This document shows positions 11,751-48,465 of a DNA stretch of 50,305 bases, piece after piece. The stretch covers positions 1-50,305 of IMG/VR virus record IMGVR_UViG_3300033388_003879. The stretch is one strand, 5' to 3'. The notes beneath the pieces are model-generated. The model was given only the letters and a program-made list of their open reading frames with translations. It made no database searches and was not told the origin of the DNA. The stretch's first letter is position 1, and the number at the start of each line of letters is the position of its first letter. The translations under genes and the position numbers were made by a program. This DNA is from a virus. Lineage: Duplodnaviria; Caudoviricetes.

Positions 11751-11924
11751 AATTATTTGTAATAAATGTTATCCTTAATTAAGGTCGTTGGCCTACTTCT
11801 TTGACGGGGAGTTTTATACATAAGTTCAGGGTTAAGAAGGCTGCTTCAGCTTCCTGCCCTATATAGTTTGCCTGAACTGACTATCTACGGGACGTCACAG
11901 GAAACTGAAGGAGTCTTTTTTTTT
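11747..11924 (+). ncRNA. a/b antisense-attenuator RNA element 2 with its promoter
   Basis: TTGAAA-17-TATCCT; TGACG/CGTCA and AGTTCAGG/CCTGAACT pairings; terminator 3' arm contains the RBS. Confidence 0.7.
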
Positions 11925-14025: not shown

Positions 14026-14029
14026 TCTC

Positions 14030-14059
14030 TTGACATACTACGTAATATAGATATAATAT
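14030..14059 (+). promoter_or_regulatory. early-type promoter with ACATACT motif
   Basis: TTGACA-16-TATAAT; AGATTAAATTAAGAGGTG leader. Confidence 0.75.
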
Positions 14060-14088
14060 AGGTAAAGATTAAATTAAGAGGTGAGAAG

Positions 14089-14259
14089 ATGAAGAAAACA
14101 ATATTAACAATGGGGATTATCTACTTTGTAGTAGGCGTTGTAGATTTATATCTGGATTATGATAAATGGACTATCCTGTGGCTTTCTAGCGGAATATTTT
14201 TTACTTTGATCGGATTAGGTATTTGGGCTATAGGCGAAATAAGGAAGATATCAAAATGA
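14089..14259 (+). CDS. 56-aa two-TM membrane protein
   Basis: Not in ORF track; MKKTILTMGIIYFVVGVV...WLSSGIFFTLIGLGIWAI. Confidence 0.7.
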   Translation: MKKTILTMGIIYFVVGVVDLYLDYDKWTILWLSSGIFFTLIGLGIWAIGEIRKISK

Positions 14260-23716: not shown

Positions 23717-23828
23717 ATTATACAGGTATATTTAACCATGTCAATAAGATACTATAAAATAATAGATAATAAAAATAATCACTAATTTGTTTATATTCTC
23801 TTGACATACTATAAATACTGTATATAAT
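23717..23828. promoter_or_regulatory. divergent early-type promoters
   Basis: Minus: TTGACA(23744)-16-TATAAT. Plus: TTGACA(23801)-16-TATAAT with ACATACTAT. Confidence 0.75.
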
Positions 23829-23859
23829 TAGAGGTAGATTAGAGAGAAGAGGTGATGAG

Positions 23860-24021
23860 ATGAGCGAAAAAAGATTTGAACTTAGAGAAGAAATAACCAA
23901 ACATACCATTCAGTATTTTGATAATTTGGAAGAAGCTCAGGAAGAACAAAATCTTCTAAATAAAATAAATACAGAAGTTTACGATATAGAATGGAAGGAA
24001 ATTAGACTTCCTATGTTCTAA
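23860..24021 (+). CDS. 53-aa hypothetical protein
   Basis: Not in ORF track; GAGGTG RBS. Confidence 0.65.
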   Translation: MSEKRFELREEITKHTIQYFDNLEEAQEEQNLLNKINTEVYDIEWKEIRLPMF

Positions 24022-24034: not shown

Positions 24035-24172
24035 ATGAAAGATTCAAAGCAATGTGATATATGCATCCATGATCCTTTAGATCCATCACCTGATACATAT
24101 TGTGATGATTGTGATAATGGAAGTGAATATATTGAGAACAGTATTAAAGTAGAAATTCTTCGAAATAAATAA
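24035..24172 (+). CDS. 45-aa CxxC...CxxC protein
   Basis: Not in ORF track; GAGGAG RBS. Confidence 0.6.
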   Translation: MKDSKQCDICIHDPLDPSPDTYCDDCDNGSEYIENSIKVEILRNK

Positions 24173-25980: not shown

Positions 25981-26148
25981 AGTCCTAGTCGAGGCTAGGA
26001 CAGCACGGCTGGAGAGCTTAGACCGAAAGGTGGATACTTGAAAAATGGGTGATACGCTACCCTGAGTGCGAGATTGAAAAACCTATTTTTAGGTTAATCC
26101 GATTTGATCACGGATTATTTAAAGCTTCTCAGACGAGAGGCTTTTTTA
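25981..26148 (+). ncRNA. structured ncRNA of unknown class
   Basis: TTGATA(25947)-17-TATATT promoter, five hairpins, terminator, no ORF. Confidence 0.65.
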
Positions 26149-26177
26149 TTCTAATCATAAAATAATTAAATATTCTC

Positions 26178-26206
26178 TTGACATACCATGATATAAAGAT
26201 TAGATT
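26178..26206 (+). promoter_or_regulatory. early-type promoter with ACATACCAT
   Basis: TTGACA-17-TAGATT. Confidence 0.7.
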
Positions 26207-26223
26207 TAGGTAGATTAAAGAGC

Positions 26224-26385
26224 TTGATAATGTAGATTATCCATATTATATTTAACGTATCTGAACTAACCACTCAGGTGCATAGAACATGGAATTTTTT
26301 AAAAGCATTGAGCGCTTTTTATGTCAGATCTTCCATGTGTCTGGCTCCCTATGTGGTGTAGGGGAAGCGCTGAGTGCTTTTCTTA
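26224..26385 (+). ncRNA. a/b antisense-attenuator RNA element 3 (orphan) with its promoter
   Basis: TTGATA-17-TATATT; ACCAC/GTGGT and ACATGGAA/TTCCATGT pairings; long hairpin ending TTTTCTT. Confidence 0.65.
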
Positions 26386-26537
26386 TTGTTCAGCTCGTGT
26401 TTTGTAACGGTTTGACGTAATAGTAGTCTATCCACCGTAGTACAGGTAAAGGTGAGTAGGAGCACTGCAAGTAGAGATAAATGTATCTTGACAGGTTCGG
26501 TATAGGTGGGTTTTAAAAAAAAAAGAGAGGATAGAAT

Positions 26538-27000: not shown

Positions 27001-27028
27001 AGCTTCTCTTCGGAGAGGCTTTTTTTTT
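27001..27028 (+). terminator. intrinsic terminator
   Basis: AGCTTCTC-TTCG-GAGAGGCT plus T-run. Confidence 0.85.
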
Positions 27029-27188: not shown

Positions 27189-27232
27189 CTGAGAGGCTTT
27201 TTTTTTATTCCATCCTGATCTATAATTACAGC

Positions 27233-32996: not shown

Positions 32997-33037
32997 TTTA
33001 TAGCTAATTTCATGCTAGATTACAGACGTTCGATCCT

Positions 33038-33079
33038 TCCGGTCAGTCTGTACTTTGTGCAACTGGCCGGATTTTTTTT
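33038..33079 (+). terminator. terminator/attenuator before lysis genes
   Basis: TCCGGTCAGT/ACTGGCCGGA plus T8. Confidence 0.8.
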
Positions 33080-33103
33080 GGTCTAAAAGGATTGAACAAC
33101 TAT

Positions 33104-33571
33104 ATGGCTAAAGGGAAAAATATGGATTCTGAAACTAGAACCGCTCTTGATACTATAGAAGGAAAACTGGAAAATCTCATTAGGAGTCTGATCGATAATG
33201 GATTTAAGGGAGTTAAGGGGATAATTACAGAGTTATTCAATAAAGACATTGACCATATAAATGAACACCTTACGAGACTTGATAAATACTCTGAAGAGCA
33301 TTACAAGGAAGATAAAAAAATATGGAAAGAAATTGATCTTCTTAGGGCTTCGATGCCCACTGAAATAGACAGAAAACTAAAACCCCTTATTGATGATATT
33401 GAAATGTTGAAAGAAAAACAGATTACAGCTTTTGTATCCCACGAAACAGAGGATAAAATCGAAGATAAGCAGGATAGAAAAAAAGAATTATCATATGGAA
33501 AAGTTGGAGCACTTGTGGCTATTGCCTCTCTTATTAGCGGGGGAATTGTATTTTTAATTAATTATATTTAA
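33104..33571 (+). CDS. coiled-coil protein with C-terminal TM (lysis-associated)
   Basis: Precedes endolysin; C-terminal hydrophobic helix; start uncertain. Confidence 0.6.
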   Translation: MAKGKNMDSETRTALDTIEGKLENLIRSLIDNGFKGVKGIITELFNKDIDHINEHLTRLDKYSEEHYKEDKKIWKEIDLLRASMPTEIDRKLKPLIDDIEMLKEKQITAFVSHETEDKIEDKQDRKKELSYGKVGALVAIASLISGGIVFLINYI

Positions 33572-33592
33572 TATTTGCAAAGGAATCGAACA

Positions 33593-34219
33593 ATGAAAGT
33601 GCAAAGAAAGTATTTTGAGAGATCGGAAAAACGATTACTAAGAGAAATTAAAGCAATTGTCATTCACTGGCCTGGACCCAAAAAAACAATTGACGGGTAC
33701 AGGACGCAAGATATTAATTATCTATGGAAATGGATGAATACCGGTACTGAAAATTCCTATCATTTCTTAGTTTCTCAAGACAAAATTATTCAATGCAGAC
33801 ATACCAGCTATAGAGCAATTCATTGTGGCCATGTTTCATACAGAAAAAAAGCAAAAGATTTTTTCGGCGGCAATATTTGTTCTCCTAATGATTCCCCGAA
33901 TAATTATACTATTGCTGTCTGTATGCTCCATGATTTTGAAACCGGTGGGTATGATACTAAAACTATTAATACTTCAGTTGATCTACTGGCTCACTTGTGT
34001 ATTGATAATAATCTATCACCTGAAACTGATTTATTGAGACATTCGGATATTACTAATGAAAAGAAAGTACCTTGTCCTTTAGGATTCTTCGAAGATGACG
34101 ACGATCCAGATGATTTATGGAATTCTTTTAAAAGTTGGGTAGCTGCGAAGATAACACAGATATATCGGGATATTGGTATAGTGGAAAATAAATTTGATAA
34201 AGGACATATGGAGAGGTGA
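33593..34219 (+). CDS. endolysin, N-acetylmuramoyl-L-alanine amidase (Amidase_2, T7-like)
   Basis: IVIHW, SYHF, AIHCG, IAVC, RHSD...KVPCP. Confidence 0.9.
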   Translation: MKVQRKYFERSEKRLLREIKAIVIHWPGPKKTIDGYRTQDINYLWKWMNTGTENSYHFLVSQDKIIQCRHTSYRAIHCGHVSYRKKAKDFFGGNICSPNDSPNNYTIAVCMLHDFETGGYDTKTINTSVDLLAHLCIDNNLSPETDLLRHSDITNEKKVPCPLGFFEDDDDPDDLWNSFKSWVAAKITQIYRDIGIVENKFDKGHMER

Positions 34220-34222
34220 AAT

Positions 34223-34390
34223 ATGAATGGTAGAAAGGTTCCATGGACACATTCAAGAGCTATTGCTTTTATGTATCAAAATGTTCCATCAAATAGATGT
34301 ATGCCATATCTGAAAAGACAGGCATCAAAAGAGAGTCGAAGATATCTTAAAAACGAGCTTAGAAAAGAACTTATCAATTTAGAGGAGTAA
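34223..34390 (+). CDS. 55-aa basic hypothetical protein
   Basis: Not in ORF track; GAGGTG RBS. Confidence 0.55.
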   Translation: MNGRKVPWTHSRAIAFMYQNVPSNRCMPYLKRQASKESRRYLKNELRKELINLEE

Positions 34391-34393
34391 TTT

Positions 34394-34621
34394 ATGTCAA
34401 AATTATTAGAAGATAAAGATGGAAATCCTTCAAGCAAAAGAGTAGCAGGATTTGTAACTCTTGGAATGGGTATTTTTATGTTAGCTATGGGTGGCTTTAT
34501 ATCGATGAAGTGGGAGCTTAAAGACTCATTGACATTTATAGAGGTTGGTAAAGTTTTGTGTTTGACTGGTGGCGGTTTACTCGGTATCGGCGTAGCTGAA
34601 TTTTTTGGTAAAAAATCATGA
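34394..34621 (+). CDS. holin (2 TM)
   Basis: GNPSSKRV followed by two TM helices; in lysis cassette. Confidence 0.65.
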   Translation: MSKLLEDKDGNPSSKRVAGFVTLGMGIFMLAMGGFISMKWELKDSLTFIEVGKVLCLTGGGLLGIGVAEFFGKKS

Positions 34622-34935
34622 CAACATTTGTGATAATCTTAATATCTATTGCAGTTGCCGGAGTCGGTGGTGGTATCATATACCTTAAACGCCGTCTGAA
34701 AAAAGGTGATATCGGTATTGCTGAATCAAAAACTCTCAAGAAACAAAAAAAGAAAACAGCCGAAGTCGAGAATAAAAAAAATAGAATCAGGGAGAAACAC
34801 GATGAAATCGAAAATAATATTATTAACGATCCTGGTAATGATCATGGTGTCATGCCAGTCAATACCAAAAGAAAGCATAATCATACCCATGGTCGTCCCT
34901 GTGGAGTCAGCTGCCCTTCTTACAGTGATGATTGA
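34618..34935 (+). CDS. i-spanin (Rz-like)
   Basis: N-terminal TM, coiled coil, C-terminal Cys. Confidence 0.6.
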   Translation: MTTFVIILISIAVAGVGGGIIYLKRRLKKGDIGIAESKTLKKQKKKTAEVENKKNRIREKHDEIENNIINDPGNDHGVMPVNTKRKHNHTHGRPCGVSCPSYSDD

Positions 34936-35056
34936 AGACGAATATACAGATGGTGTATTTCTTTTGATTAATGAATGGGGGAAAGTGAAAATCAATTACT
35001 CTCGTTATCAGAAAGAAATTGATTTACTTAGAGCTGAATTGGAAAAGTTTGAATAG
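34802..35056 (+). CDS. o-spanin lipoprotein (Rz1-like), overlapping in another frame
   Basis: GGGAGA RBS; MKSKIILLTILVMIMVSC lipobox. Confidence 0.7.
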   Translation: MKSKIILLTILVMIMVSCQSIPKESIIIPMVVPVESAALLTVMIEDEYTDGVFLLINEWGKVKINYSRYQKEIDLLRAELEKFE

Positions 35057-35063
35057 ATAAATC

Positions 35064-35121
35064 ACTTCCTGCCATCGGAGTGAGACCGCACGTATTACAA
35101 GGATACATGGCGGGAAGTTTT
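35064..35121 (+). terminator. branched terminator hairpin
   Basis: ACTTCCTGCCAT/ATGGCGGGAAGT plus TTT, with two internal hairpins. Confidence 0.65.
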
Positions 35122-35160
35122 ATATTTGACATACTATGATAAATAAGCTATATTTCTATT

Positions 35161-35257
35161 GAAGCAAGTCAACAGCAATTCCCGTTCTGGGAAACTTTTC
35201 ATTTGCCTCGAATTTAATCTACTAGCTACCGTTGGCCTCTCTTCGGTAGCTTTTTTT
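35161..35257 (+). ncRNA. small RNA with anti-RBS loop
   Basis: TTGACA(35126)-17-TATATT promoter; AGCTACCG/CGGTAGCT plus T-run terminator; no plus-strand ORF. Confidence 0.7.
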
Positions 35258-35318
35258 ATTGTATTTTTATTCATGGTATGTTAAAGTAATAGTAAGATTA
35301 AATTAAGAGAGGTGAAGA

Positions 35319-35759
35319 ATGATAATAGTTGATATTGACGGAACGATTGCAAAAGTAGGCGATAGATTGAAATATTTACAACAGTCTCCGAAAGACTGGG
35401 ATTCATTTTATGCTTCATCTTTTGACGATGAGCCAATAAAAGATATAATTGATTTAGTCGTTTGCTTATTCAATAAAGGGCATTCAATCGTCTTCTGTAC
35501 CGGTCGCCGTGAAAGTTGCAAATACGACACTATAGAATGGATTAAAAAGCATTTTCCTGTTCATTTTACCTATCATAAATTATTAATGAGACCGAACAAC
35601 GATTACAGGCATGATACAGAAACAAAAATAGAAGCCTGTTCCAATGCTGGAATAATGCTACAGGATATAAAAATGGTTTTAGAAGACAGGAATTCTATGG
35701 TTGAAAAATGGCGTTCGCTAGGAGTTCGATGTCTTCAAGTTGCCGATGGAGATTTTTAA
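35319..35759 (+). CDS. HAD-family phosphatase (polynucleotide kinase phosphatase domain-like)
   Basis: VDIDGT, CTGR, LLMRP..D.RHD...K, EDR. Confidence 0.9.
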   Translation: MIIVDIDGTIAKVGDRLKYLQQSPKDWDSFYASSFDDEPIKDIIDLVVCLFNKGHSIVFCTGRRESCKYDTIEWIKKHFPVHFTYHKLLMRPNNDYRHDTETKIEACSNAGIMLQDIKMVLEDRNSMVEKWRSLGVRCLQVADGDF

Positions 35760-35760
35760 A

Positions 35761-36243
35761 ATGAACCCCTACCACCCCCTAATCGACTACGCAAAAACAG
35801 AACATATCCGTTTATTAATCGAAACATACAAAGATGGTTTCACAATTATATATTGCGATAAAACAGAAAAGCGGAATATATTAAAACAGATCAGGTTAAA
35901 TAAAATTAAATCCAGAGCTAAAATTATTGCCCATGATTATAATACCGAGTTCTTAGAAGAGCCTAAATTATTCGAATTAAATTTTGTCAGAAGTAGAATA
36001 TTGAGACGGTTTATTAAGAAGCGGGAGATTCATACATATAAAAATTTCACTCCTCAAGAATTATTTAACATCGTATGTGTAGATTTTCCAGAATCAGATA
36101 GATATAATTTCATCATGGATATTAAGAATTTCTACTTCACTGATATTGAGAAATTAAAGAAATTCGCTTTGAAACATAAAATAGATTGCAGTATTAACCG
36201 TGATCGTAAAACTTTTATTATATATTACAAAGGAGTCGAATAA
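35761..36243 (+). CDS. hypothetical protein
   Basis: GGAG RBS before ATG 35761. Confidence 0.6.
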   Translation: MNPYHPLIDYAKTEHIRLLIETYKDGFTIIYCDKTEKRNILKQIRLNKIKSRAKIIAHDYNTEFLEEPKLFELNFVRSRILRRFIKKREIHTYKNFTPQELFNIVCVDFPESDRYNFIMDIKNFYFTDIEKLKKFALKHKIDCSINRDRKTFIIYYKGVE

Positions 36244-36245
36244 AA

Positions 36246-36791
36246 ATGCTAACAAACGATAGATTACAGGGAATATTATCATTCAATATTAAAAATCCCT
36301 ATAAAATTACAGTGGATGGAGATTTTGAAGATCGGACAGAAATAATCTGTCATGAGTTCAATAATAAAGCCAGTGCAAATACTGCATGGGATCTTGAACA
36401 ACTTCTATTATCTGCATTCAGCAGCATAGAGCGTAAAGCGGAAAAGATGACAAAAAAGCAGATCCAGAAAGAAGAAAAAGAGGAAAATCTTTTCTATGAA
36501 AATAATAGTCCATCTGAAAAAGAAGTAGCTGAAAGATCCGACCAATTATTGTTAATGTTCAAAATGCAGAAAGAAGTCAAAATGTCTGAACTCATGGATT
36601 TATTTGAAGACATGGTAGCCGAAAAACTCTTATCAACTGCCGGAGATGTTAAGATGTTTGCCCCTGTATGGGATTCTATAAAGCCTAAAGACAAACTCGA
36701 TATCGTTTTCCGGTATATAGTTTTTTTCGTCAATCCCTTGCAGTCACTACAGCAGATGGCTATAGCAGACAGCGAGGGAAATACAAAGTAA
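36246..36791 (+). CDS. tail assembly chaperone (gpG-like); -1 frameshift product extends to 36931
   Basis: Upstream of tape measure; slippery T TTT TTC at 36722-36728. Confidence 0.75.
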   Translation: MLTNDRLQGILSFNIKNPYKITVDGDFEDRTEIICHEFNNKASANTAWDLEQLLLSAFSSIERKAEKMTKKQIQKEEKEENLFYENNSPSEKEVAERSDQLLLMFKMQKEVKMSELMDLFEDMVAEKLLSTAGDVKMFAPVWDSIKPKDKLDIVFRYIVFFVNPLQSLQQMAIADSEGNTK

Positions 36792-36940
36792 GAAACCCTC
36801 AATTATTTTCAGATGCTTTAAAAGTGTCGGCTAATATGAACGGTGGTATAAAGTTTGAAGAATTTTTATATTATCCATATACAATGAGACAGAAGATAAT
36901 AGAAGAGTTGAATAGCTGGAAAGATAAATAAGGAGCGATT

Positions 36941-37234
36941 ATGAAATATAGAAAAAAGCCGGTAGTTATTGAAGCAATTACATTTGAGGAAGTAGTTGAA
37001 TATGGAAAAGAGTATTGTAGAAAAAGAAACATTGCTCTTGTTGATGGAATGCCTTGGAGTTTTGAATATGAAGGACATCCATTAACGCATGAAAATAATG
37101 AGTGCTACTTATTCGATACTCTTGAAGGTTCTGAGCGTATGACTCCCAAAGATATGATGATTACTGGAGTTGAGGGTGAAATATATCCTATTAAGTTGAA
37201 TATATTTGAAAAAACCTATGAACTGGTCAAATAG
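36941..37234 (+). CDS. conserved phage protein (KYRKKPVVIEA family)
   Basis: TLEG...DMMITGVEGEIYP...IFEKTY. Confidence 0.85.
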   Translation: MKYRKKPVVIEAITFEEVVEYGKEYCRKRNIALVDGMPWSFEYEGHPLTHENNECYLFDTLEGSERMTPKDMMITGVEGEIYPIKLNIFEKTYELVK

Positions 37235-37251
37235 TGTTAAACACGTAAAAG

Positions 37252-37279
37252 AGTCCTCTTAAATGAGGGCTTTTTTTTT
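37252..37279 (+). terminator. intrinsic terminator
   Basis: AGTCCTC/GAGGGCT plus T-run. Confidence 0.8.
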
Positions 37280-37306
37280 ACTCAGAAAAGCTTTACAATA
37301 TAATCA

Positions 37307-39370
37307 ATGTTCTCAATTAATTATTTATATTCGATAATCGATAAATACTCTCCAATTCTCGATAAAATGGCTAGAGCCGGTGCAAAATTTGATAAATCTG
37401 TTTCCCGCATTCAAACCGGACTCGGCAGAATGGAAGATAAGTTTAAATCAGCCGGTGCTAAAATGGCTAATCTTCAGACAGGATTAGCTTCTCTCGGTGC
37501 GGGTGTATTCCTTAAATCCACTATAGATGAAGCGAAACAATTCCAACAGGCTTTAAATCTTACGAAAGCCGTAACTAAAGCCAACTCAGAGCAAATGGAC
37601 ATCATGAGGGCGAAAGCTCTTGAATGGGGAGCTAGTACCCAATTCAGTTCATTGCAAGTTGCTGGAGCTATGGCTGAACTCGGTAAAATGGGAAATGATA
37701 CAAATCAGATCCTTGATTTAATGCCTGGAACGATGGCACTTGCTGCAGCCGGTGAAATATCCATGGCTGAAGCTGCCAATTATACAATGGCTACAATAAA
37801 TCAGATGGGTCTTGAATTATCCGATGCCGGAATGGTTGCGGATGTTTTCGCCACCGGTGCCAGTAATGCAGCCACTACCGTTTCAGGACTTGCCAGTGCT
37901 TTCACTAATACCGGACTACAGGCCAAACTATCAGGATTAAGTGTCACTGATACCACTCAAGCGTTAATGGCTCTAGCCAGTGCCAATCTTGAGGGTGCTA
38001 TGGGTGGTACGATGATGATGAACGCCTTAAAAGATCTAGAGAAAATGTCAGGGAAAACCAGAGACGGTTTTGATGCTCTTGGAATTGATATAGATAATTT
38101 TAGAGATGCTACAACCGGTCAGATGACAGATTTCTGGGGTTTGATAGAGGCAATGAAAGCCGCCAATGTAACCGGTAAAGATTTAGGGGCTATGTTCGAT
38201 ATTCGTGGTAAAAAAGCTATGTCAGTTTTGATTGAAACAACTACTGAAAAAATGGACGGGTTCGCAGAGTCTTTAAGAGATACTACCGGAGCTTCTAAAG
38301 AAATGCAGGACACTTTATTAGAAGGTCTGCAGCCTTTCGTTGAATTCGAATCAGTTACTCAGAATCTTAAAGTAATTATGGGAACATTTGTTATGGAAGC
38401 ATTGTCTCCACTGCTTAATAAATTTAATGAGTGGCTTGGAAATATGCAGAAAAATAATCCTGAGACTCTTAAATGGATTACTTATCTACTTATGGGAGTA
38501 ACTGCACTTGGAGCAGTATTGATTCCTCTTGGTCTTTTTATATCCGCTCTCGGGTCTCTTTTCGGAGCCTTGAAACTTGCTCTTGGAATAACTAAAATAT
38601 TCGGACTCGCTCAAGCTCTTCTTGCCGGAGTAATGGGAACTTCAGGGGCTTCAATTGCCATAACAACGGCCTCTACGAAAGCTTATGTAATCGGTACAAA
38701 AATTGCAGCCGTAGCAACTAAAGTATGGTCTGTTGTTCAGATCGCTTTTAATGCTGTCATGAGTGCAAACCCTATCGCATTGGTAATAATTGGAATTGCT
38801 GCATTAGTCGCTATAATCATACTTGCTGTTAAATACTGGAAACAGATAACAGCTGCGGTAAAAGCTGCATGGGAATGGATTGTAAATTTTTATGATGCAA
38901 TGAAAGGATTGATTGTAATATTTGCGCCGTTTTTAATTCCTTTATTAACTACAATTGAAGTTATTCGAGAATTGGTAAAATCTTTCGCAGATATAAAAGC
39001 CGCTTTTACTGATGAGGGGTTTATTGCTGGAATCCTATCTATAGGACAGGCGATATTTAAAGGACTCATAGAGCCGTTTAAGGGTGTTCTTGATCTTGTG
39101 ATAGCCGTTAAAGATAAAATAGGCGGTGCGTTCGTAGCTGTTAAGGATTTCTTCACAGGTGGCGAAGAGCCTGGATCATATACAGGTAACCCCAGTGGCC
39201 GGATGAGACAACAAGAAGCCCCAACCCCTGGAGATGGGAGAAGAGGAGCAAACGCCACTGCTAACGCCACTTTATCTGTATACACTGAAAAGGGAATGGG
39301 CGTGAAACCATATGAAGCTTCTGGGGATCTCGGTTATAATATGTCTAATAATTATTCGAGAGGTATGTAA
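37307..39370 (+). CDS. tail tape measure protein (TP901-type core)
   Basis: TQFSSLQVAGAMAELGKMG; Ala/Gly-rich; NAVMSANP. Confidence 0.92.
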   Translation: MFSINYLYSIIDKYSPILDKMARAGAKFDKSVSRIQTGLGRMEDKFKSAGAKMANLQTGLASLGAGVFLKSTIDEAKQFQQALNLTKAVTKANSEQMDIMRAKALEWGASTQFSSLQVAGAMAELGKMGNDTNQILDLMPGTMALAAAGEISMAEAANYTMATINQMGLELSDAGMVADVFATGASNAATTVSGLASAFTNTGLQAKLSGLSVTDTTQALMALASANLEGAMGGTMMMNALKDLEKMSGKTRDGFDALGIDIDNFRDATTGQMTDFWGLIEAMKAANVTGKDLGAMFDIRGKKAMSVLIETTTEKMDGFAESLRDTTGASKEMQDTLLEGLQPFVEFESVTQNLKVIMGTFVMEALSPLLNKFNEWLGNMQKNNPETLKWITYLLMGVTALGAVLIPLGLFISALGSLFGALKLALGITKIFGLAQALLAGVMGTSGASIAITTASTKAYVIGTKIAAVATKVWSVVQIAFNAVMSANPIALVIIGIAALVAIIILAVKYWKQITAAVKAAWEWIVNFYDAMKGLIVIFAPFLIPLLTTIEVIRELVKSFADIKAAFTDEGFIAGILSIGQAIFKGLIEPFKGVLDLVIAVKDKIGGAFVAVKDFFTGGEEPGSYTGNPSGRMRQQEAPTPGDGRRGANATANATLSVYTEKGMGVKPYEASGDLGYNMSNNYSRGM

Positions 39371-40680
39371 TGTCAGAATTCACAGATTCCCAACTGCAGG
39401 GTAAATATAAAAATATACCGTTTTTAGTTCACAGCGAATCTCTCAATGATGTCGGACAGGCTATAGTTATACATACCTATCCAAAATCAAGCGTTCAATA
39501 TCTTGAGCCGATGGGAGAAAATCCATTTGATGCTACTGTTTCTTTATTTTTCCATGGAGACAAAGCAAAAGACCAGTTTGAATCTTTTAAAAAAGCAATT
39601 CAAGATCCTGCACCAGGAAGATTATATCTTCCTTCGTTCGGAATATTTGACAATATTAAAGCTCATCCAACCGCTTTTTTATCTGATCAGAAAACACTCG
39701 GTAAAATTTCCGCTTCTGTCAGATTTTCATCATCCATAGACAGGCCTTCTCCTATTGATTCTGAAATATCAGAACAGGATGTTGCCAGTAAATCGATTGA
39801 AGCAATGGCAGAACTGGAAGAGACATTTAAAAAAGAATATGTTGAACCTGAAACAGAAAAGAATTTTTTAACTGCCCTTACCGATGCTCTTGGAATATCA
39901 GATGATATAAAGAAAATTACAGGTCTGATTAAAGAGGCAAGGAATTTTGCAAGAAAAGTTGATAGATCAATCAGAGAAGTAGATAAATACGCAGCTCTTT
40001 TATTAAATCCCGGTCAACCGTTGGGATATCTTCAGTCAATTATATTAGGTACTAGAAATACAGGTGCATTTTCATTGTTTACTAGAATTGCAAATATCGG
40101 AAAGAATCAGTCAAACTCTATAAACGATATAGATGCCGGTATTTCACCTAACCCATCAACTGTGTTCCCTGATGAACCTTTAAGTCTTCAGGTAGATGTT
40201 AATATCAATCTATGGGATAACGACACAACGGAGAGAATAGAGCGAAACGTAAACAGATTAGCAGTAATAAACACATTTAGAATTACCGGATTGATAGGTA
40301 TGTTCGAAAGTGCTTCAAACGCAAATTATACAACTACAGAAGAAATTGATAAAACGATTTTAGTATTAGAGGATTACTATACAGCCCTTGTAGAAAATGA
40401 TGCATCGTGCGTGATTATATGTTCTATGAAATCTATAATTGATGAATTAAAAAATCTAACTGATAAAGTGTTGGAAAAGAAACGGCAGCAATCATATGTC
40501 GTTATTGAAATAAATGAAGTCAGGCCGATTTCAAGCGTATTGCTGGCCTATAAGTTATATGGTGAACTGATAAATAAAGAAGTTAATTTATTCTTTATGG
40601 CCTCTATTATTGCCGGACTGAACAGAAATCAACCGGCTCACGCTCTTGAGGGCACCGTAAGGGTGGTTGAAATTGCTTGA
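39370..40680 (+). CDS. Mu gpN-like DNA circularisation/tail protein
   Basis: GKYKNIPF...HTYP...PGRLYLPSFG; LAYKLYG. Confidence 0.85.
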   Translation: MSEFTDSQLQGKYKNIPFLVHSESLNDVGQAIVIHTYPKSSVQYLEPMGENPFDATVSLFFHGDKAKDQFESFKKAIQDPAPGRLYLPSFGIFDNIKAHPTAFLSDQKTLGKISASVRFSSSIDRPSPIDSEISEQDVASKSIEAMAELEETFKKEYVEPETEKNFLTALTDALGISDDIKKITGLIKEARNFARKVDRSIREVDKYAALLLNPGQPLGYLQSIILGTRNTGAFSLFTRIANIGKNQSNSINDIDAGISPNPSTVFPDEPLSLQVDVNINLWDNDTTERIERNVNRLAVINTFRITGLIGMFESASNANYTTTEEIDKTILVLEDYYTALVENDASCVIICSMKSIIDELKNLTDKVLEKKRQQSYVVIEINEVRPISSVLLAYKLYGELINKEVNLFFMASIIAGLNRNQPAHALEGTVRVVEIA

Positions 40681-41932
40681 AGTAAGAGTTAACGGGAAAA
40701 CTTTTAACAGGTTTAAAGAGGCTGGTGGTTTATTTTCAGATGATACTTTCGCCGGTGAATTTTCAATAACTACGTCACCTTCCCCGAATAATAATTCATT
40801 TTTAAAACTAGGTGATTCAGTAGAAATACTTCTTGATGGGATTCAAAAACACACCGGATATCTAGAAGATGTAGAAGATTCTGAAGCAAGAACAAATCAT
40901 GATATAAAATTCGTTGGTCGTGATATTGTCTCAGATCTAATAGATTCTTCAGTCCCTGAAAATGTGAAATCTTTAGAGGATGTTTCTAAATTTTCTGAAT
41001 TGGTTCAATTGTGTATTGACGGGTTGGGGTTAACAGATAAAATAAAAGTTATTGATGATGTCGGTGCGACTTTCGGAGATAGTACGAAATTAAAAGCGGC
41101 ATCAACAGGTCAGACAGTTGGTGATTTTTTAGCAGAAAATTCCCGCATAGTTCAAGTATTTTTAAATACTGATGGTTATGGCAATGTTTTAATACGTAGG
41201 CTTGGTGGAAAACTAAAGACAACCCTTCAGTTAGTACCCGGAGCCATAAACAATAATATAAAATCATCTAATCTGAAAATAAATTGGAGAGAAAGGTTTT
41301 ACAAATATACAGTTTATAGTAACTCCTCTCTTGCCAGTGATAGTGCTACAGTGAATGATATAAACAATTCTGGAACTGCTTTTGACAATGCAATAAGAAA
41401 ATCGAAAGTGTTGGAAATTATTGCAGATAAACCAATGACTTCTGATCAATGCAAAAGAGCAGCCGAGGAAGAGGCAAATATAAGGCGTGGGCGATCATTT
41501 AATTATGATTGCGATGTAGCTGGATTTTCTGCTAATGGTGAACTATGGGAACCAGGACTAATAGTTCCGGTAAAAGATGAAGATCGGAAAGTCAAAGGAG
41601 AGTTTCAGATTTCAACTGTTCGTTGGGGTTGGTCTGGTTCTGGTGAAGTAGTAAATATATCAGTTACTTATCCAGATAAAGGATTTGTAGAGCCAGAATT
41701 AAGGCCAGCTATCGAAAAGACAGTTGAGGATAGCAGGACATATATTAAAAAAGAAAATGAGCCAGAACCGGAGCCGGAAACAAAAATATTCAACAGTTAT
41801 GCAAGAGCAGATCAGGTGCCATATATAATAGAGCCTCCTGTAACAGAAATTAAAACCCCTGTAGTACAAGTGGCAGAGGGGGAATTTAACAGCTTCGCAA
41901 AAGCTAATGAAAACCCATACGGAGGGTCTTAA
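40667..41932 (+). CDS. baseplate hub (Mu gpP/gp44-like)
   Basis: GRDIVSDLIDSS, ERFYKYTV, LWEPG. Confidence 0.88.
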   Translation: MKLLEVRVNGKTFNRFKEAGGLFSDDTFAGEFSITTSPSPNNNSFLKLGDSVEILLDGIQKHTGYLEDVEDSEARTNHDIKFVGRDIVSDLIDSSVPENVKSLEDVSKFSELVQLCIDGLGLTDKIKVIDDVGATFGDSTKLKAASTGQTVGDFLAENSRIVQVFLNTDGYGNVLIRRLGGKLKTTLQLVPGAINNNIKSSNLKINWRERFYKYTVYSNSSLASDSATVNDINNSGTAFDNAIRKSKVLEIIADKPMTSDQCKRAAEEEANIRRGRSFNYDCDVAGFSANGELWEPGLIVPVKDEDRKVKGEFQISTVRWGWSGSGEVVNISVTYPDKGFVEPELRPAIEKTVEDSRTYIKKENEPEPEPETKIFNSYARADQVPYIIEPPVTEIKTPVVQVAEGEFNSFAKANENPYGGS

Positions 41933-42430
41933 ATGATAAACCCATTCAAAATAGGAATATTTAAAAAAATGCTCTCTTCTCGATTAGGTAGAGTTTTATT
42001 TGAAGGGAAAGAACAGCCAGGAGTAGTTTATATTCCGTATGGAATGTTTGCAAATATACAGGAAGATATACCTTCAGGAATATTACTTGATCAGGGAAAT
42101 GAAGAATCTCTTTTATTTATTCCTTTTGATATAAAAAACCGTGAAGAATTAAATAAAAATGAAATAGGTTTCGGAATACCTAGTGAAAAAAATAGGATGT
42201 ATTTTAGGGAAGGGAAAATTACTTTTAAAATAGAGGATACAGAGGGCGGCGACTTTGCAGTACGATATCTTGAACTGAAATCCGCATTTGATGAACTGAA
42301 GAGTGATTTTAATTCATTTTTAACTCATGTCCATGGATTTAGTGGAACGCCTCCAGTACCTCCCGCGATTCCATCTACTGCAGACATGTCAGATGCAAAG
42401 ATTGATAAAATAGAGCTTCCCGAGCTATAA
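41933..42430 (+). CDS. baseplate spike (Mu gp45-like)
   Basis: PYGM motif, C-terminal HxH (THVH). Confidence 0.8.
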   Translation: MINPFKIGIFKKMLSSRLGRVLFEGKEQPGVVYIPYGMFANIQEDIPSGILLDQGNEESLLFIPFDIKNREELNKNEIGFGIPSEKNRMYFREGKITFKIEDTEGGDFAVRYLELKSAFDELKSDFNSFLTHVHGFSGTPPVPPAIPSTADMSDAKIDKIELPEL

Positions 42431-42448
42431 TGATGATAAGGGGATTAA

Positions 42449-42595
42449 ATGAAGATTATTAAAAAATGCGTAGCATGGAGATATAATTTACCTCTTTTTT
42501 ATTTTACAGGATGGAGAGTCAAATATCCATGGTTTAGATTTTTCGTATATAAAGTTTATTTTATATGTCCAGAAACTTTAAAGGGATTAAATTAA
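42449..42595 (+). CDS. 48-aa aromatic-rich hypothetical protein
   Basis: Not in ORF track; GGGG RBS. Confidence 0.45.
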   Translation: MKIIKKCVAWRYNLPLFYFTGWRVKYPWFRFFVYKVYFICPETLKGLN

Positions 42596-43033
42596 ATGAA
42601 TATCCAAGACATTAAAGCAGTCCAATCAAATATAGGGCAATATGATTTTGAAATAGACACCGATACAAGAGACATTGCTACAGTTCAAGGTTTTGAATCA
42701 GTTGTATCTGTACAGCTTGATACTGATCAACGCGCCAACAGAGATGAACGGTCGGACGCTCAGAATAGGCAGGGATGGATTGGAGATATATATAATGAAG
42801 GATATAAAATCGGCTCTAAATTACATTTAAAACAACAGGCCAGAGATACACCGTTAGATAAAAATGAAATTGCAGCTGAAGCAAAAAACGCACTGGAATA
42901 TCTGGTAAAAATCAGAGCTGCTAAAGAGATTACAGCCGCTTTTCTAGGTAACACAATTGATGGTAAAATAATTGTAGATGCAAATAATGTGAGTAGATAT
43001 AATAGACTATGGAGAAATACAAGTGGCAATTAA
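42596..43033 (+). CDS. baseplate wedge protein (Mu gp46-like)
   Basis: RQGWIGD...GSKLHL...ALEYL. Confidence 0.85.
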   Translation: MNIQDIKAVQSNIGQYDFEIDTDTRDIATVQGFESVVSVQLDTDQRANRDERSDAQNRQGWIGDIYNEGYKIGSKLHLKQQARDTPLDKNEIAAEAKNALEYLVKIRAAKEITAAFLGNTIDGKIIVDANNVSRYNRLWRNTSGN

Positions 43034-44360
43034 ATTAAAATCATTTGCAGATTTTGTTAATCTCATGATCGGGAAAGGATATAAAGCATTACCCGGAATA
43101 GATCCGACAATAAAAGCCTCAATTATAAACGCTTCTATTGTATCTAATGCCGCCGGGATGGTGTCATGTCAGGAAGGCATTAAAGATGCTGTTAATCAGT
43201 CTTTTCCACAAACCGCCGATGAAGGTTTTTTAGAACTTCATGGTGAACCGAATAACGTAGTGAGGTTTTCACCTCAAGAGGCAATCGGTCAAGGGGCGGC
43301 ACCTGGGATTTTAGGAACTGAAGTTGATATCGATTCACCTATAACATTTAACGGAAATTCTTATATAAATACAATCGCCTCAGTTGTTCAAGCATATTCA
43401 GGATCACTGTCATTATCTTTTTCTTCTGGCTTAGTAACTGTAGTCACAACTATAAATCATACACTGTCTACAGGTTTAGAGGTGACAATATCAGACGCTG
43501 TTCAGACAGAATATAACGGTACATTTGAAATAATAGTTTTATCAGATAACTCTTTTACTTATGAGTTGGTAGCTGGAGTTTTAAATGTAGATACCGGGAA
43601 TTATTCCAGTGAATATGCATTATTACAGATTGAATCAGTCGAAGCAGGATTAAATAAAAACGCCGGAGCCGGTTCTTTAATGACTATAAATGAAACTGGA
43701 TTAACTGGTTTTGTCAGTGTTGGATTCGGTGGTTTAGTTCTCGGAAGAGACTTAGAAGATTTCGAAGCCTTGAGAGTACGGGTTATGGACGCAAATAGTT
43801 TAACTCCCGGTGTTGCTACACCACCAATGGAAGTATTTTCAGCTAAATCTATTACCGGAAATACAAGAGTTTTTATACAGAGAGCAACGGCCACGGCTTC
43901 GGGAACTCCTGGACAACCGGGATATATCCCAGGGGTAGGTGAAACTGTAATTTATATTGTAAGGGATGATGATCCGTCAATAATCCCTAGTGCTGCGATT
44001 CTGGACGCTACGAAAGCGCAATTAATAGCTGATGGCGTGTGGCCGACAATGGTGCCGGATGAACATTTATACGTTATTGCGGCTACTTTAAAAACCCAAG
44101 ATTTTAATTTTACGTCGATTACGCCGAATACAATTACAATGCAGAATGCCATCAATAATCAACTTCCTGCATTTTTTCAGGACAATACAACTACCCTCGG
44201 CGGTACTATTTTACTGACAACAATAAATAAATTCCTTGATCAGGTTCAAGATCCTGATACCGGAAAAATATTGACAGCATATGTCTATGATATACCTCCA
44301 GGTGATATAGTTCAGCTTCCAGGGGAATTGTACACGAGAGGAGAGGTAACCTTTGGATAA
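43023..44360 (+). CDS. baseplate J / Mu gp47-like protein with inserted beta domain
   Basis: FPQTADEGFLELHG; GRDLEDFEALRVR. Confidence 0.88.
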   Translation: MAIKLKSFADFVNLMIGKGYKALPGIDPTIKASIINASIVSNAAGMVSCQEGIKDAVNQSFPQTADEGFLELHGEPNNVVRFSPQEAIGQGAAPGILGTEVDIDSPITFNGNSYINTIASVVQAYSGSLSLSFSSGLVTVVTTINHTLSTGLEVTISDAVQTEYNGTFEIIVLSDNSFTYELVAGVLNVDTGNYSSEYALLQIESVEAGLNKNAGAGSLMTINETGLTGFVSVGFGGLVLGRDLEDFEALRVRVMDANSLTPGVATPPMEVFSAKSITGNTRVFIQRATATASGTPGQPGYIPGVGETVIYIVRDDDPSIIPSAAILDATKAQLIADGVWPTMVPDEHLYVIAATLKTQDFNFTSITPNTITMQNAINNQLPAFFQDNTTTLGGTILLTTINKFLDQVQDPDTGKILTAYVYDIPPGDIVQLPGELYTRGEVTFG

Positions 44361-45030
44361 ATCCATTTTATCATTTCAACCATTAAATGAAACTCAATCC
44401 GAACATTACGCAGCCGATCATTATCCAAAAGGAAGATTATGGTCTAAGCGTCACGTAAAAGATACAATTATATATAATTTCATATTGGTTTTATCAACTG
44501 TTTTTAAGTTATTTTTCGGTGATTTATTTACACTGGTAAAAAATAGAGATATAAATCAGGCAAATGAATTACTTGAAGAATGGGAAACATCCTTAAGAAT
44601 TCCAGAGCATATACCCAGAAGAACTACCATTGAAGGACGGCGTGAAGCAGTCAGGTGTAAAAAATCTAAGATTCCGGTATATAATATAGATAATGGAATT
44701 GTTCCAATTGAATCGACATTTGAACATTATATTGAATGCTTGACAGGAATTGAAGTTAATATCAGAACTGCACAAGTTGAGGGTACTGGTTCAGTTTTTC
44801 CAATGGAATTTCCTGTAGAGTTTGGAGTAGGTGCGGCTTCTGGAAGTTTCATTTTTATTATAGGAGTTCCGGTAATAGGTGATTTTGCAAATAACTTTTT
44901 CCCTATGTCGTTTGCAATAAACTTTTTTGATCCTTCGGTACCGGATGCGACTATTGAATTATTAGATTTAATTTTAGACGATGTTATACCTAGTTTTTGC
45001 TATTGGGTATATGAAGCAATACAAATATAA
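44353..45030 (+). CDS. baseplate wedge protein (Mu gp48/YmfQ-like)
   Basis: YPKGRLW; ELLEEWE..L.IP; RREAV. Confidence 0.8.
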   Translation: MDKSILSFQPLNETQSEHYAADHYPKGRLWSKRHVKDTIIYNFILVLSTVFKLFFGDLFTLVKNRDINQANELLEEWETSLRIPEHIPRRTTIEGRREAVRCKKSKIPVYNIDNGIVPIESTFEHYIECLTGIEVNIRTAQVEGTGSVFPMEFPVEFGVGAASGSFIFIIGVPVIGDFANNFFPMSFAINFFDPSVPDATIELLDLILDDVIPSFCYWVYEAIQI

Positions 45031-45041
45031 GGAGTATTTAA

Positions 45042-46064
45042 ATGCAAGAAATACCGAGTAAAAGCGATTCAACGGCTGGAGCTAATGGAGTTTTACCAGC
45101 TGCTGAATATAACGATAGAAATGTAGAAATAGAAAAAGTTATAACTAAATCAAACCAGACATTAAGCGCTGGAATAACAGACCAGTTCTCAAAAGCGATT
45201 TTCATAAATGCGATTGGTGCTGCTTCGATGATTGATAGTGGTTCAGGTAATACAATTACTCTTGCACCTGTAACCGGAGGCAGTGGCTTAACACCCCCCG
45301 GAGACTATACGCATTTCAACGGTGGTGTAGTCTGCTTTAATAAAGCTGATCCCAACACTGGAACTGCGGTGACAATTTCACCGTGGGGATTGAGTGCTAA
45401 ATCTCTTGTCAGAAAAGATCTGTCTTTACCTCTTGCCGGGGATATAATCGGTACTTGTTTTGTTAAATGGGATAATGGAGAAGATAAATGGATATTGTTG
45501 AGGAATGAAACAGATACCTATGGATATTTCATAGATGCCTCGGGTCCGGTTGTTCCGAAATTTTCTAATAATGTAGTAGAGATGGATGTCAGTTTAGGGA
45601 ATGTAGATATTGACGCGCTAGATTTATCTGATTTCATCGGTCAGCATGTTCATTTCTACGCTGTAGGTTCTGGTATCGGATCAATTGCCGGTGGTAATGG
45701 TGTTTATGTGAATGATATTTTTATTACTACTAATACTGGTGGTGCTCATGGGTATGGCGTTAGTGGCGGATTGTGGAAATTTGATAATGGGGTTACTGCT
45801 GATTATTTCAGCGCTTTACGGATTAGACAGCATTCAAATGGCTATATGATTCAAACCGGAGCAGGGTCAACAACAACAACTTCATGGACTGGAAATTTTC
45901 CTATCCCGTTTTTGATAGAACCGGTTAAAGAGGCATCTTTTACAACAGATACAGGTGGGTTTTTATTTCAGCTACGCCCAACTCCACTTACTGACAAATG
46001 GAGCCTCTCATCATCTCAAGCAGGAGCTAATATCTATCACTTAGAAGCGCAGGGAGATTATTAA
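45042..46064 (+). CDS. tail fibre / receptor-binding protein
   Basis: Position; NTGTAVTI..WGL.AK.L; NGYMIQTG...FPIPF. Confidence 0.75.
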   Translation: MQEIPSKSDSTAGANGVLPAAEYNDRNVEIEKVITKSNQTLSAGITDQFSKAIFINAIGAASMIDSGSGNTITLAPVTGGSGLTPPGDYTHFNGGVVCFNKADPNTGTAVTISPWGLSAKSLVRKDLSLPLAGDIIGTCFVKWDNGEDKWILLRNETDTYGYFIDASGPVVPKFSNNVVEMDVSLGNVDIDALDLSDFIGQHVHFYAVGSGIGSIAGGNGVYVNDIFITTNTGGAHGYGVSGGLWKFDNGVTADYFSALRIRQHSNGYMIQTGAGSTTTTSWTGNFPIPFLIEPVKEASFTTDTGGFLFQLRPTPLTDKWSLSSSQAGANIYHLEAQGDY

Positions 46065-46115
46065 AATGAAAATAAAAGCAACATTCAATAAAAATCAAAT
46101 ATCCGAGGCAATAAG

Positions 46116-46706
46116 ATGACATATAAAACAATACCAACAATGAATAAAAAGAATCATGATGATTTCTCAATATCTGGAAATATTATTACAATCAATGACA
46201 CTGATTACGATCTGGAAAATCCACAAGTACTGCAAGAAATCGGTAAAGATGAGGAAGACAATCCAATCCTTGAATCATATGAAAATCAAAGAGTCTACCT
46301 TGAAAATGATATCTGCTATGTCAGGTTGATTGTAGATTTTTTACAGTTTCATTTATTTGCTAATAGCGGATATCTCATTTTTCATGATAAAGATTCTAAT
46401 GGTGAATTGGATTTATTGGAATATATGAATTTTTTAGGTTGTCTGTTAAACTCGGATTCTGAGCGTAGAGAAGAACATAGACAAGTAATAACTGAGTTTT
46501 GCTTAAAGTCAGTCTCTGAAAAGAACCCCGATAAAGCAAGGGAATTTTACAACAGTAGAACACCTGGAACTTTAAGAGCAAATTACACGAGGACTTTGAA
46601 ACAGTTTATTGCTGATAACAAACTTGATGAAGTTTTTAAAGCTGAAGTTATGAGCGGTTATGAGGCATGGTTGAAACATGTTAAGGATTGCATGGAAGTG
46701 AAGTAA
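46116..46706 (+). CDS. post-fibre tail-associated/assembly protein
   Basis: Position; SGNIITINDTDYDL motif. Confidence 0.55.
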   Translation: MTYKTIPTMNKKNHDDFSISGNIITINDTDYDLENPQVLQEIGKDEEDNPILESYENQRVYLENDICYVRLIVDFLQFHLFANSGYLIFHDKDSNGELDLLEYMNFLGCLLNSDSERREEHRQVITEFCLKSVSEKNPDKAREFYNSRTPGTLRANYTRTLKQFIADNKLDEVFKAEVMSGYEAWLKHVKDCMEVK

Positions 46707-48210: not shown

Positions 48211-48465
48211 TTATAAATCCGTATCGTGCCACAATTCCCAAAGCCAGAATTTACCTTTTCTGGTTAATTTGTATTTACTGGTGATCAATCCTAATTCTAT
48301 TAAAATGGTTTCAGAAGTGTGACCTTGAGAATATCCAGAAGCACATTTTAAAATCCCGTTCCTGACTACTTGAGTTTTAGTTAGACTTCCGAAATTAGCG
48401 TTACCCCAAACTTTATTTACTTCTATATTAAAATCGTATAGAGTTTGGCTGAATTTTTTCATCAT
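48211..48465 (-). CDS. hypothetical winged-helix-like protein
   Basis: LIELGLI...YKLTRKG. Confidence 0.6.
   Translation of the reverse strand: MMKKFSQTLYDFNIEVNKVWGNANFGSLTKTQVVRNGILKCASGYSQGHTSETILIELGLITSKYKLTRKGKFWLWELWHDTDL

Follow-up and report, generated by a model that had tools for sequence, protein, structure and literature searches.

The window analysed here is the whole of an IMG/VR virus record (IMGVR_UViG_3300033388_003879; 50305 bases, with a completeness estimate of 93%), and scans against PHROGs and Pfam identified it as a contractile-tailed phage. Within a 262-base gap of this genome (35057-35318), with the lysis cassette on its upstream side and a phosphatase gene downstream, a unit was found at 35126-35257 which from its sequence looks like a real promoter-to-terminator RNA gene. 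Based on predicted folds and pairings, we tentatively propose, and with rather less than an even chance of being right, that it produces an RNA directed against the translation-initiation region of the adjacent phosphatase gene, in cis and possibly also in trans. This regulatory reading is put forward because the full anatomy of an RNA gene is present, the complementary pieces are unpaired, the loop opposing the Shine-Dalgarno sequence (SD) is large, the best match lies next door and the target appears to lack a promoter of its own.

The putative RNA unit and its predicted pairing with the phosphatase leader

The unit begins with a sigma-70-type promoter on the plus strand (TTGACA-17-TATATT, 35126-35154), which matches the consensus at 11 of 12 positions, the best such match within 33000-38000, and whose spacing predicts a transcription start near 35161. 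As a class, promoter-like sites are not enriched in that region (17 found vs 19.7 +/- 4.5 in shuffles). An intrinsic terminator on the same strand (35224-35257) closes the unit and is composed of an 8-bp stem with 4 G-C pairs (35224-35231/35244-35251; -13.0 kcal/mol), a 12-nucleotide (nt) loop (35232-35243) and a run of 7 T (35251-35257). Its loop, TTGGCCTCTCTT, is atypically large, the other clear terminators in the scans having loops of 4-6 nt, and the terminator was missed by the terminator scan owing to a loop limit of 8 nt. No credible open reading frame (ORF) was found in the ~97-nt stretch. A 41-amino acid (aa) frame with a TTG start on the plus strand (35159-35284) and a 46-aa frame on the minus strand (35274-35134) are present there, but neither has an SD. 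Leaderless translation of the 41-aa frame from its TTG was considered and rejected on account of the non-AUG start 5 nt past the -10 box and the lack of an internal Met until the hydrophobic end. The promoter, the ORF-less transcript of ~97 nt and the terminator had all been described in the original prediction and were all recovered here, with the terminator coordinates slightly corrected.

The putative RNA (35161-35257, 97 nt) has a predicted fold of -26.7 kcal/mol (z = -3.43), with 1 of 200 shuffled sequences being as stable. This fold comprises a 5' hairpin (35161-35209; apical 5-bp stem TTCCC/GGGAA, -11.5 kcal/mol), an unpaired 14-nt linker (35210-35223) and the terminator, the loop of which is also unpaired. 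A first word opposing the SD, GCCTC (35205-09), occurs in the 3' base of the 5' hairpin. It forms part of a longer anti-leader segment (TTGCCTC-G-AATTTAATCTACT, 35203-35223, plus strand) that is the reverse complement of the consensus early leader of this phage plus GAGG. A second such word, CCTCTCTT, makes up the 3' eight nt of the terminator loop (35236-43). No Rfam family reached its gathering score anywhere in the window, and at E-values of up to 10 the region 34900-35500 gave four chance-level matches, none of them to C4 and none inside 35126-35312. ARAGORN identified no tRNA or tmRNA genes in the window, the element included.

The loop word CCTCTCTT is the exact complement of AAGAGAGG, and the linker word AATTTAATCT is the exact complement of AGATTAAATT, as had been claimed. 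Among the leaders of the phage, that of the adjacent gene is the only one matched perfectly by both segments, over 18 contiguous target nt, with 35211-20 pairing with 35295-304 (10/10) and 35236-43 pairing with 35305-12 (8/8). This sole perfect two-segment match points to a local relation. In the predicted 97-nt fold both segments are unpaired, and together they would cover the ribosome site of the target. When the 97-mer was shuffled, 25 of 20000 sequences contained two such segments, each perfectly complementary over 8 nt or longer to the 37-nt initiation region of the adjacent gene and separate from the other, as did 14 of 4980 natural 97-nt windows taken every 20 nt. In a full scan of both strands, the places with two segments of at least 8 nt close together were the antisense strands of other ribosome sites.

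The target gene (35319-35759, plus strand) encodes a 146-aa HAD-family phosphatase of the polynucleotide kinase-phosphatase type (HAD_PNKP), with the phosphatase domain only (PF25109, E = 1.2e-28; phrog_415). Its leader and SD (AGTAAGATTAAATTAAGAGAGGTGAAGA, 35291-35318, plus strand) are a copy of the early cassette leader and form the best target of the upstream RNA. The gene carries the cassette leader AGTAAGATTAAATTAAGAGAGGTGAAGAATG without a recognisable -35 or -10 box directly in front of it, and most of its mRNA should therefore carry the upstream RNA in cis.

When a read-through RNA (35161-35345) was folded, both the minimum free energy and the centroid structures gave a nested helix in which GCCUC (35205-09) and 35211-23 are paired with 35291-35313 (z = -2.35; 1 of 200 shuffles as good). 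This helix encloses an intact terminator hairpin and covers the GAGG core. The predicted cost of opening the region from the SD to the AUG (35305-35321) depends on where the transcript starts, being 5.96 kcal/mol for a start at 35161 (mean unpaired probability 0.40), 3.96 kcal/mol for a start at 35000 (0.35) and 0.38 kcal/mol for a start at 35290 (0.91). The SD and the start codon are thus paired in the predicted folds of the long transcripts. A cis pseudoknot over 35295-35312 had been offered as an alternative in the original prediction, and of this the cis idea is retained; the pseudoknot itself is not required, as pairing of the loop with the SD would only add to a nested helix that suffices for masking in the fold. 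A weak extended -10 candidate, TGGTATGTT (35274-82, plus strand), has no -35 box and did not appear in the promoter scan; possibly it starts a short, unmasked mRNA near 35290.

According to the mechanism we propose, a small RNA gene has been built into one of the repeated early promoter cassettes of this phage, with a strong host-type promoter and a start near 35161. Most transcripts would end at the terminator (35224-35257) and yield the ~97-nt RNA. The 3' half of this RNA would be an antisense image of the initiation region of the gene at 35319, with GCCUC and the single-stranded linker (35205-35223) mirroring the leader and the GAGG core, and the terminator loop (35236-43) mirroring the extended SD AAGAGAGG. 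On read-through transcripts, and on those arriving from upstream promoters or genes, pairing in cis with 35291-35313 would bury the SD and leave the phosphatase untranslated, and any unmasked phosphatase mRNA could be bound likewise, in trans, by free 97-nt RNA. Weaker, secondary effects in trans on other early genes are possible, since those genes share the leader.

Repeated cassettes and ribosome sites across the genome

The promoter of the RNA unit belongs to a family of repeats. The sequence TTGACATAC occurs five times (9671, 14030, 23801, 26178 and 35126) vs 0.49 expected, with 0 of 100 shuffles reaching five copies, and every copy is on the plus strand and before a -10 box. Within ~10 nt 3' of the -10 box at 9669, 14028 and 23799 comes a leader of the form (G)GTAGATTAAATT-AAGAGGTGA-N-ATG, and then a small gene; the same holds for a related minus-strand promoter at 23744. 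The window holds five or six promoter-leader cassette units, with the RNA unit sitting in one of these. The spans of the family are 9669-9732, 14028-14091, 23799-23862, 23744-23686 (minus strand), 26176-26225 and 35124-35160, and its general layout is TCTTGACATACTA, TATAAT or TAGATT, (G)GTAGATTAAATT, AAGAGGTGA and ATG. AGATTAAATT and the AGAGAGG-type SD thus belong to a single cassette, copies of which are spread over the genome. The other leaders share these motifs because they are copies of one promoter-leader-SD cassette, and any antisense copy of one leader will therefore match all of them.

Directly upstream of the promoter at 35126 lies a stem-loop followed by TTTTATATTT (35066-35125, plus strand), with an 11-bp stem (35066-76/35108-18) and a structured 31-nt loop. 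The predicted fold of this 69-nt segment is -22.3 kcal/mol (z = -3.76; 0 of 200 shuffles as good), of which the hairpin gives -17.7 kcal/mol. It is likely to be a terminator or insulator closing the lysis cassette immediately before the promoter. With the TTGACATAC promoter present five times, the stem-loop (35066-35118) directly upstream and the gene missing in relatives, the arrangement would qualify as a cassette of the promoter-early stem-loop (PeSL) type known from T4-type phages.

Small genes at 9730-9888, 14089-14259, 23860-24021 and 24035-24172 encode products of 52, 56, 53 and 45 aa, which fall below the 60-aa ORF cut-off, and the first three of these each lie 3' of a cassette promoter. 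The product of 14089-14259 has the look of a two-helix membrane protein and that of 24035-24172 is Cys-rich; an ORF on the minus strand at 23718-23909 is probably spurious. There are also two long, ORF-poor and strongly folded stretches which represent candidate non-coding RNAs. The first (25982-26150; z = -3.65, 0 of 200 shuffles) ends in a terminator at 26121-26144. The second (26213-26510; z = -2.63, 0 of 200 shuffles) runs from the cassette promoter at 26176 and has the start of the standard leader without an SD or ORF. Rfam gave only sub-threshold, terminator-like matches to both.

The word AAGAGAGG is present in 15 copies vs 1.88 expected, a count reached by 0 of 100 shuffles. Ten copies are ribosome sites 5-7 nt before a start codon, these being the ten sites listed in the original prediction, one is the loop itself and four are not ribosome sites (4478 and 33525 and 41325 on the minus strand, 15749 on the plus strand). 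Enrichment of AGATTAAATT is weak when taken alone (three copies, at 14066, 35295 and in reverse at 35211, vs 0.82 expected; 6 of 100 shuffles reach three), and TAGTAGAT and TAGGTAGATTA are not enriched as stand-alone motifs. Sites of the GAGAGG type were found at 12 of 40 non-structural genes vs 2 of 44 genes in the structural and lysis class (Fisher p = 0.0025), and those of the GGAG type at 7 of 40 vs 13 of 44 (p = 0.21). The contrast in ribosome sites between gene classes that had been noted previously was thus borne out for the GAGAGG type, and several first genes of structural blocks do look leaderless. The start codons at 15717, 25131, 27233 and 37307, each belonging to the first gene of a structural block, lie 5-7 nt 3' of a -10-like box (TATCAT, TACAAT, TATAAT and TACAAT, respectively), often right behind a terminator, which suggests leaderless late mRNAs for these genes. 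The sequence TTTACAAT is common to 25131 and 37307.

Pairing of the RNA was predicted against 84 initiation regions taken from the ORF-based gene list, excluding the gene at 48462-50297, whose upstream region runs off the window; two starts were slightly off in these tests (9721 for 9730, by 9 nt, and 14090 for 14089, by 1 nt). Energies from RNAduplex on the whole 97-mer were inflated by huge interior loops and were discarded. When only the seeds were used, none of 300 shuffles equalled the linker or the loop in the mean energy over the top ten targets. The mean duplex energy of the loop seed was -9.96 kcal/mol for non-structural genes vs -7.05 kcal/mol for structural genes (p = 1.3e-4), and pairing of the linker was likewise stronger for the former (p = 0.0098). 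Predicted duplexes ranged from -17.7 to -27.2 kcal/mol for six cassette-type leaders, from -12.7 to -19.0 kcal/mol for AAGAGAGG-type sites and from -8.9 to -13.0 kcal/mol for four late GGAG-type sites.

In a cofold of the whole molecule, 15 of the 84 targets were bound at -8 kcal/mol or lower vs a mean of 35.8 in 40 controls with the linker and loop shuffled, a control that is imperfect in that the base of the 5' hairpin did not survive the shuffling of 35203-23 and the loop. The five best of the 84 targets were exactly the five cassette-leader genes. Target enrichment over shuffled controls, the check proposed earlier, was seen in the seed-only tests but not in the whole-molecule cofold with its imperfect control. 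The enrichment arises because the leaders are mutual copies and the loop resembles an anti-SD sequence, and the genome-wide pairing results cannot separate a global from a local regulator.

Relatives of the phage and the rival explanations

Scans against PHROGs and Pfam placed the small terminase at 11091, the portal at 15717, the protease at 18334, the capsid at 19376, the sheath at 28617, the tape measure at 37307, the baseplate genes at 39370-45030 and an Amidase_2 endolysin at 33575-34219. Non-structural genes are found at both ends of the window and in short blocks on the minus strand. The lysis cassette upstream of the gap is made up of the endolysin, a small membrane protein (34394-34621) and a lipoprotein (34802-35056). 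Together with accessory genes, it occupies 33092-37234, between the tail tube region and the gene for the tape-measure chaperone, within the tail module. The tape-measure gene downstream has its own terminator and promoter. The large terminase is present as two ORFs (12614-13045 and 13207-14025) just after a gene for an HNH endonuclease (11868-12617), the whole spanning 11868-14025. A gene at 35740-36243 overlaps the end of the phosphatase gene. Its assignment as a homing endonuclease was rejected, with LAGLIDADG_2 being sub-threshold (E = 0.0053; 17.2 bits vs a cut-off of 25) and no relative in PDB.

No DNA relatives of 34000-37000, near or distant, were found among cultured phages, and the sheath protein matched only that of Agrobacterium phage Milano (28% identity over 36% of its length). 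The phage is, on these comparisons, not T4-like. The sheath as a lone probe gave no relatives; an alignment of sheath proteins gave six loci at 57-62% identity. One of these belongs to the relative G001 (50679 bases), which is syntenic with the window and matches 32 of 85 proteins at 32-70% identity. In G001 a small gene and a homolog of 36246-36791 adjoin the lysis cassette on its downstream side, with neither the phosphatase gene nor the intergenic unit. The N-terminal part of the 35740-36243 product resembles, by eye, an 88-aa ORF at the syntenic place in G001. The two-piece large terminase is also found there (44762-46297; 61% and 59% identity), and the placement of lysis genes inside the tail module is common to G001, L021 and L025.

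Neither the phosphatase nor the RNA sequence was found in the five other sheath-related loci, of which three (L020, L024 and, in the 5 kb past the sheath, L021/L025) end before or diverge at the syntenic place. L022 is the only one of the five to cover this stretch, and its genes are tightly packed there. A search with the phosphatase gave ten loci, and the upstream DNA was inspected for the two closest, L002 and L003 (78% and 68% identical). L002 keeps a similar leader, TTAGATTTAATGTAAGGAG, inside the end of the upstream gene. From these comparisons, the block 35057-35759 is an insertion specific to this phage relative to the relatives found. Exact and gapped DNA patterns of the element gave 0, 1 (an unrelated generic promoter) and 0 matches in viral contigs, and 1 chance match, to C-rich sequence, in metagenome contigs. 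The lipoprotein (34802-35056) had no relative in viral contigs, and two scans of species genomes with alignments of the sheath and terminase revealed no prophage relatives or host.

A number of these results weigh against a regulatory pairing with the phosphatase leader. None of the relatives that cover the syntenic place has the element or the phosphatase gene there, and in L002 and L003 the phosphatase homologs are immediately preceded by a coding gene, with no RNA of this kind. Both complementary pieces can be accounted for by descent, given the reversed leader, the antisense ribosome site and the likeness to terminator 26999 described below. The predicted masking energy is moderate, and the whole-molecule cofold gave no excess of bound targets over its imperfect control, with a top-ten mean of -13.6 vs -14.7 +/- 2.2. 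It may also be asked how the phosphatase would be expressed if all read-through from the promoter is masked, the sole candidate for an internal promoter being weak.

The points on descent lead to an alternative that we regard as possible though doubtful, namely that the element has no regulatory role. It would be a by-product of mobile modules, a terminator and an early promoter insulating a recently inserted accessory gene, with the antisense pieces surviving as fossils, in part of a leader or ribosome site copied in inverted orientation and in part of a family terminator that has since decayed. Read in reverse complement, 35203-35224 is indeed a near-consensus early leader plus GAGG plus ATG. 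The linker and loop are also collinear with the antisense of AAGAGAGGATTAAATG-type ribosome sites (5497-5512, 5749-5764 and 5972-5987), relative to which ~16 nt, now the 5' arm of the terminator, have been inserted between the two. The loop and the start of the 3' arm (GGCCTCTCTTCGG) closely resemble the 5' arm and tetraloop of terminator 26999 (AGCTTCTCTTCGG), and the 9-mer TCTCTTCGG is found only in the loop and in that terminator (two copies vs 0.25 expected; 2 of 100 shuffles reach two).

Repeated modules are plentiful in this genome, as seen with the five TTGACATAC promoters, the shared leaders and the three terminators or sites ending in GAGAGGCTTTTTT (26135-26147, 27013-27025 and 27191-27203; 0 expected). 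Two of the GAGAGGCTTTTTT copies are the 3' arms of near-identical terminators with GCTTCTC 5' arms, and the copy at 27191 is without an obvious partner arm. An inverted pair of cassettes already exists (23744 on the minus strand and 23799 on the plus strand), outside the element, pairs of segments of at least 8 nt are confined to antisense strands of ribosome sites, and the whole block 35057-35759 is missing in relatives. The arrangement also matches the PeSL cassettes flanking variable genes in T4-type phages (PMC2839356). Against this, a fossil would not be expected to retain two perfect matches to the neighbouring gene specifically, to place both in unpaired parts of a well-folded RNA or to have its terminator loop preserved at 12 nt. 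Nor does the minus strand carry a promoter from which, in the present context, the inverted leader could once have served as the start of a gene. The complementary pieces can be inherited modules, which would fit an RNA born from its inverted target as well as a fossil.

A global trans-acting silencer, as put forward in the original prediction, is in our view unlikely. Here the 97-nt RNA made from the early promoter would pair with the shared leader and SD and shut off early translation. As the RNA accumulates the early class would be switched off, with the late genes escaping through leaderless mRNAs or GGAG sites, and the RNA would owe its origin to an inverted duplication of the sequence it targets, a scenario we likewise find improbable. 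Several results do lean this way. The linker complement TAGTAGATTAAATT agrees better with the leader-family consensus than with the leader next door, where an extra A is present; the duplexes with cassette leaders are stronger than those with late GGAG-type sites; the cassette-leader genes head the cofold ranking; the seeds outperform all shuffles; and both the stronger pairing and the GAGAGG-type sites are concentrated in non-structural genes. However, such an enrichment follows automatically from cassette copies and an anti-SD-like loop, and selection for many targets does not follow from it. The structured cofold also gave fewer, not more, bound targets than its imperfect controls, titration of a dozen abundant early mRNAs would fall to a single small RNA, and no relative carries the RNA, although G001 also uses AGAGAGG sites.

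In G001 (L014-L016) these AGAGAGG-type sites, at 35072, 27974 (minus strand), 40473 and 14558 (minus strand), stand behind consensus TTGACA/TATAAT promoters with different, shorter leaders. Since they are also used there, the SD variant can be taken as a trait of the lineage or host, with the TAGATTAAATT leader specific to the phage of the window. What stands of the global proposal is that the exposed segments complement early leaders, preferentially those of non-structural genes.

The layout of a strong promoter, a short terminated leader and genes in the same direction recalls the PR'-6S RNA-tR' arrangement of phage lambda (the 6S/Q system), which is a precedent for a leader controlled by antitermination. 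The short RNA would then be an aborted product, with a phage factor permitting read-through into the phosphatase and tail genes. We consider this quite improbable, as read-through RNA would still have a masked ribosome site in the predicted folds, the tape-measure gene downstream has a terminator and promoter of its own, no Q- or N-like gene was recognised in the PHROGs scan and the complementarity would be left unexplained. The type I toxin-antitoxin pair also raised in the original prediction, with the plus-strand RNA antisense to a minus-strand mRNA for the 22-codon peptide MKSFPERELLL..., can be rejected with little hesitation, for although such a frame exists (ATG at 35202) with a GAGG upstream and is overlapped along its entire length by the plus-strand RNA, its peptide is hydrophilic and lacks a membrane-spanning segment, the GAGG is just 3 nt from the ATG, no minus-strand promoter appeared in the scan, with the -10 position occupied by the terminator stem, and the longer 46-aa frame has no SD.

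Significance and comparison with known systems

The locus provides a fully specified candidate, with a 97-nt RNA and an 18-nt target. If the local reading is true, an accessory gene from a mobile promoter cassette would be kept silent by an RNA made of the cassette's own parts. If the global reading were true, the RNA would constitute an RNA-only early-to-late switch, a counterpart in RNA of the T4 RegA/RegB early shut-off, and would show clearly that inversion of a copied target can give rise to a regulatory RNA. Should the element be a fossil, it would still document PeSL-like modular cassettes in a phage group unrelated to T4.

To our knowledge, few phage-encoded small RNAs have a known target, and those that regulate phage genes are mostly true antisense RNAs or of the c4 type. 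A thin literature search, covering titles and the openings of abstracts, found no phage RNA aimed at a shared early leader, which does not show that none is in print. Among bacterial small RNAs, those with C-rich or anti-SD loops pair with the SD of their targets through an unpaired, pyrimidine-rich loop, and phage antisense RNAs include P22 sar and lambda oop. The RNA described here differs from both groups, being phage-borne and on the same strand as its putative targets, whereas the bacterial RNAs are host-encoded and those of the sar/oop type are true cis-antisense RNAs. An origin by inverted duplication is known for plant microRNAs.

The closest functional parallel may be drawn with the c4 RNA of phages P1 and P7 (immI region), which has two complementary stretches (the a'/b' segments) and is co-transcribed with its target. 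It blocks translation by means of complementary sequences, likely in loops, which pair around the ribosome site (PMC12197685). As with c4, the putative RNA lies just upstream of its target and in the same direction, and short complementary stretches are predicted to cover the ribosome site of the target. Unlike c4, there is no homology in sequence or structure, and the element does not belong to the Rfam C4 family. Its release would also be by an intrinsic terminator and not by processing, and the target is a phosphatase and not an antirepressor operon, with no apparent role in immunity.

Masking of ribosome sites has been described for the T4 genes e, soc, 49 and I-TevI and for Aeh1 mobE: on long transcripts, helices that cover the ribosome site keep these genes silent, and short transcripts starting inside the structure are translated (PMC3014915). 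The predicted helix between 35205-23 and 35291-35313, together with the opening energies, fits this logic of long-transcript masking. It differs in that 70-85 nt separate the masking arm from the masked site, the intervening loop holding an entire terminator hairpin, that a second anti-SD word is located in the loop of this hairpin and that, of the internal promoter which defines the T4 cases, there is only a candidate, the weak extended -10 box.

In T4-type phages, each repeated PeSL unit combines a strong sigma-70-like promoter with a stem-loop terminator and with the SD and first codons of a small variable gene; the units sit beside accessory genes and are thought to drive modular shuffling (PMC2839356). 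The repeated promoter-leader units of the window resemble these in an unrelated myovirus. PeSLs are described as regulatory and recombination cassettes acting at the DNA level and not as sources of regulatory RNA. A further difference is that the copy with its promoter at 35126 has ~130 nt inserted between the -10 box and the leader.

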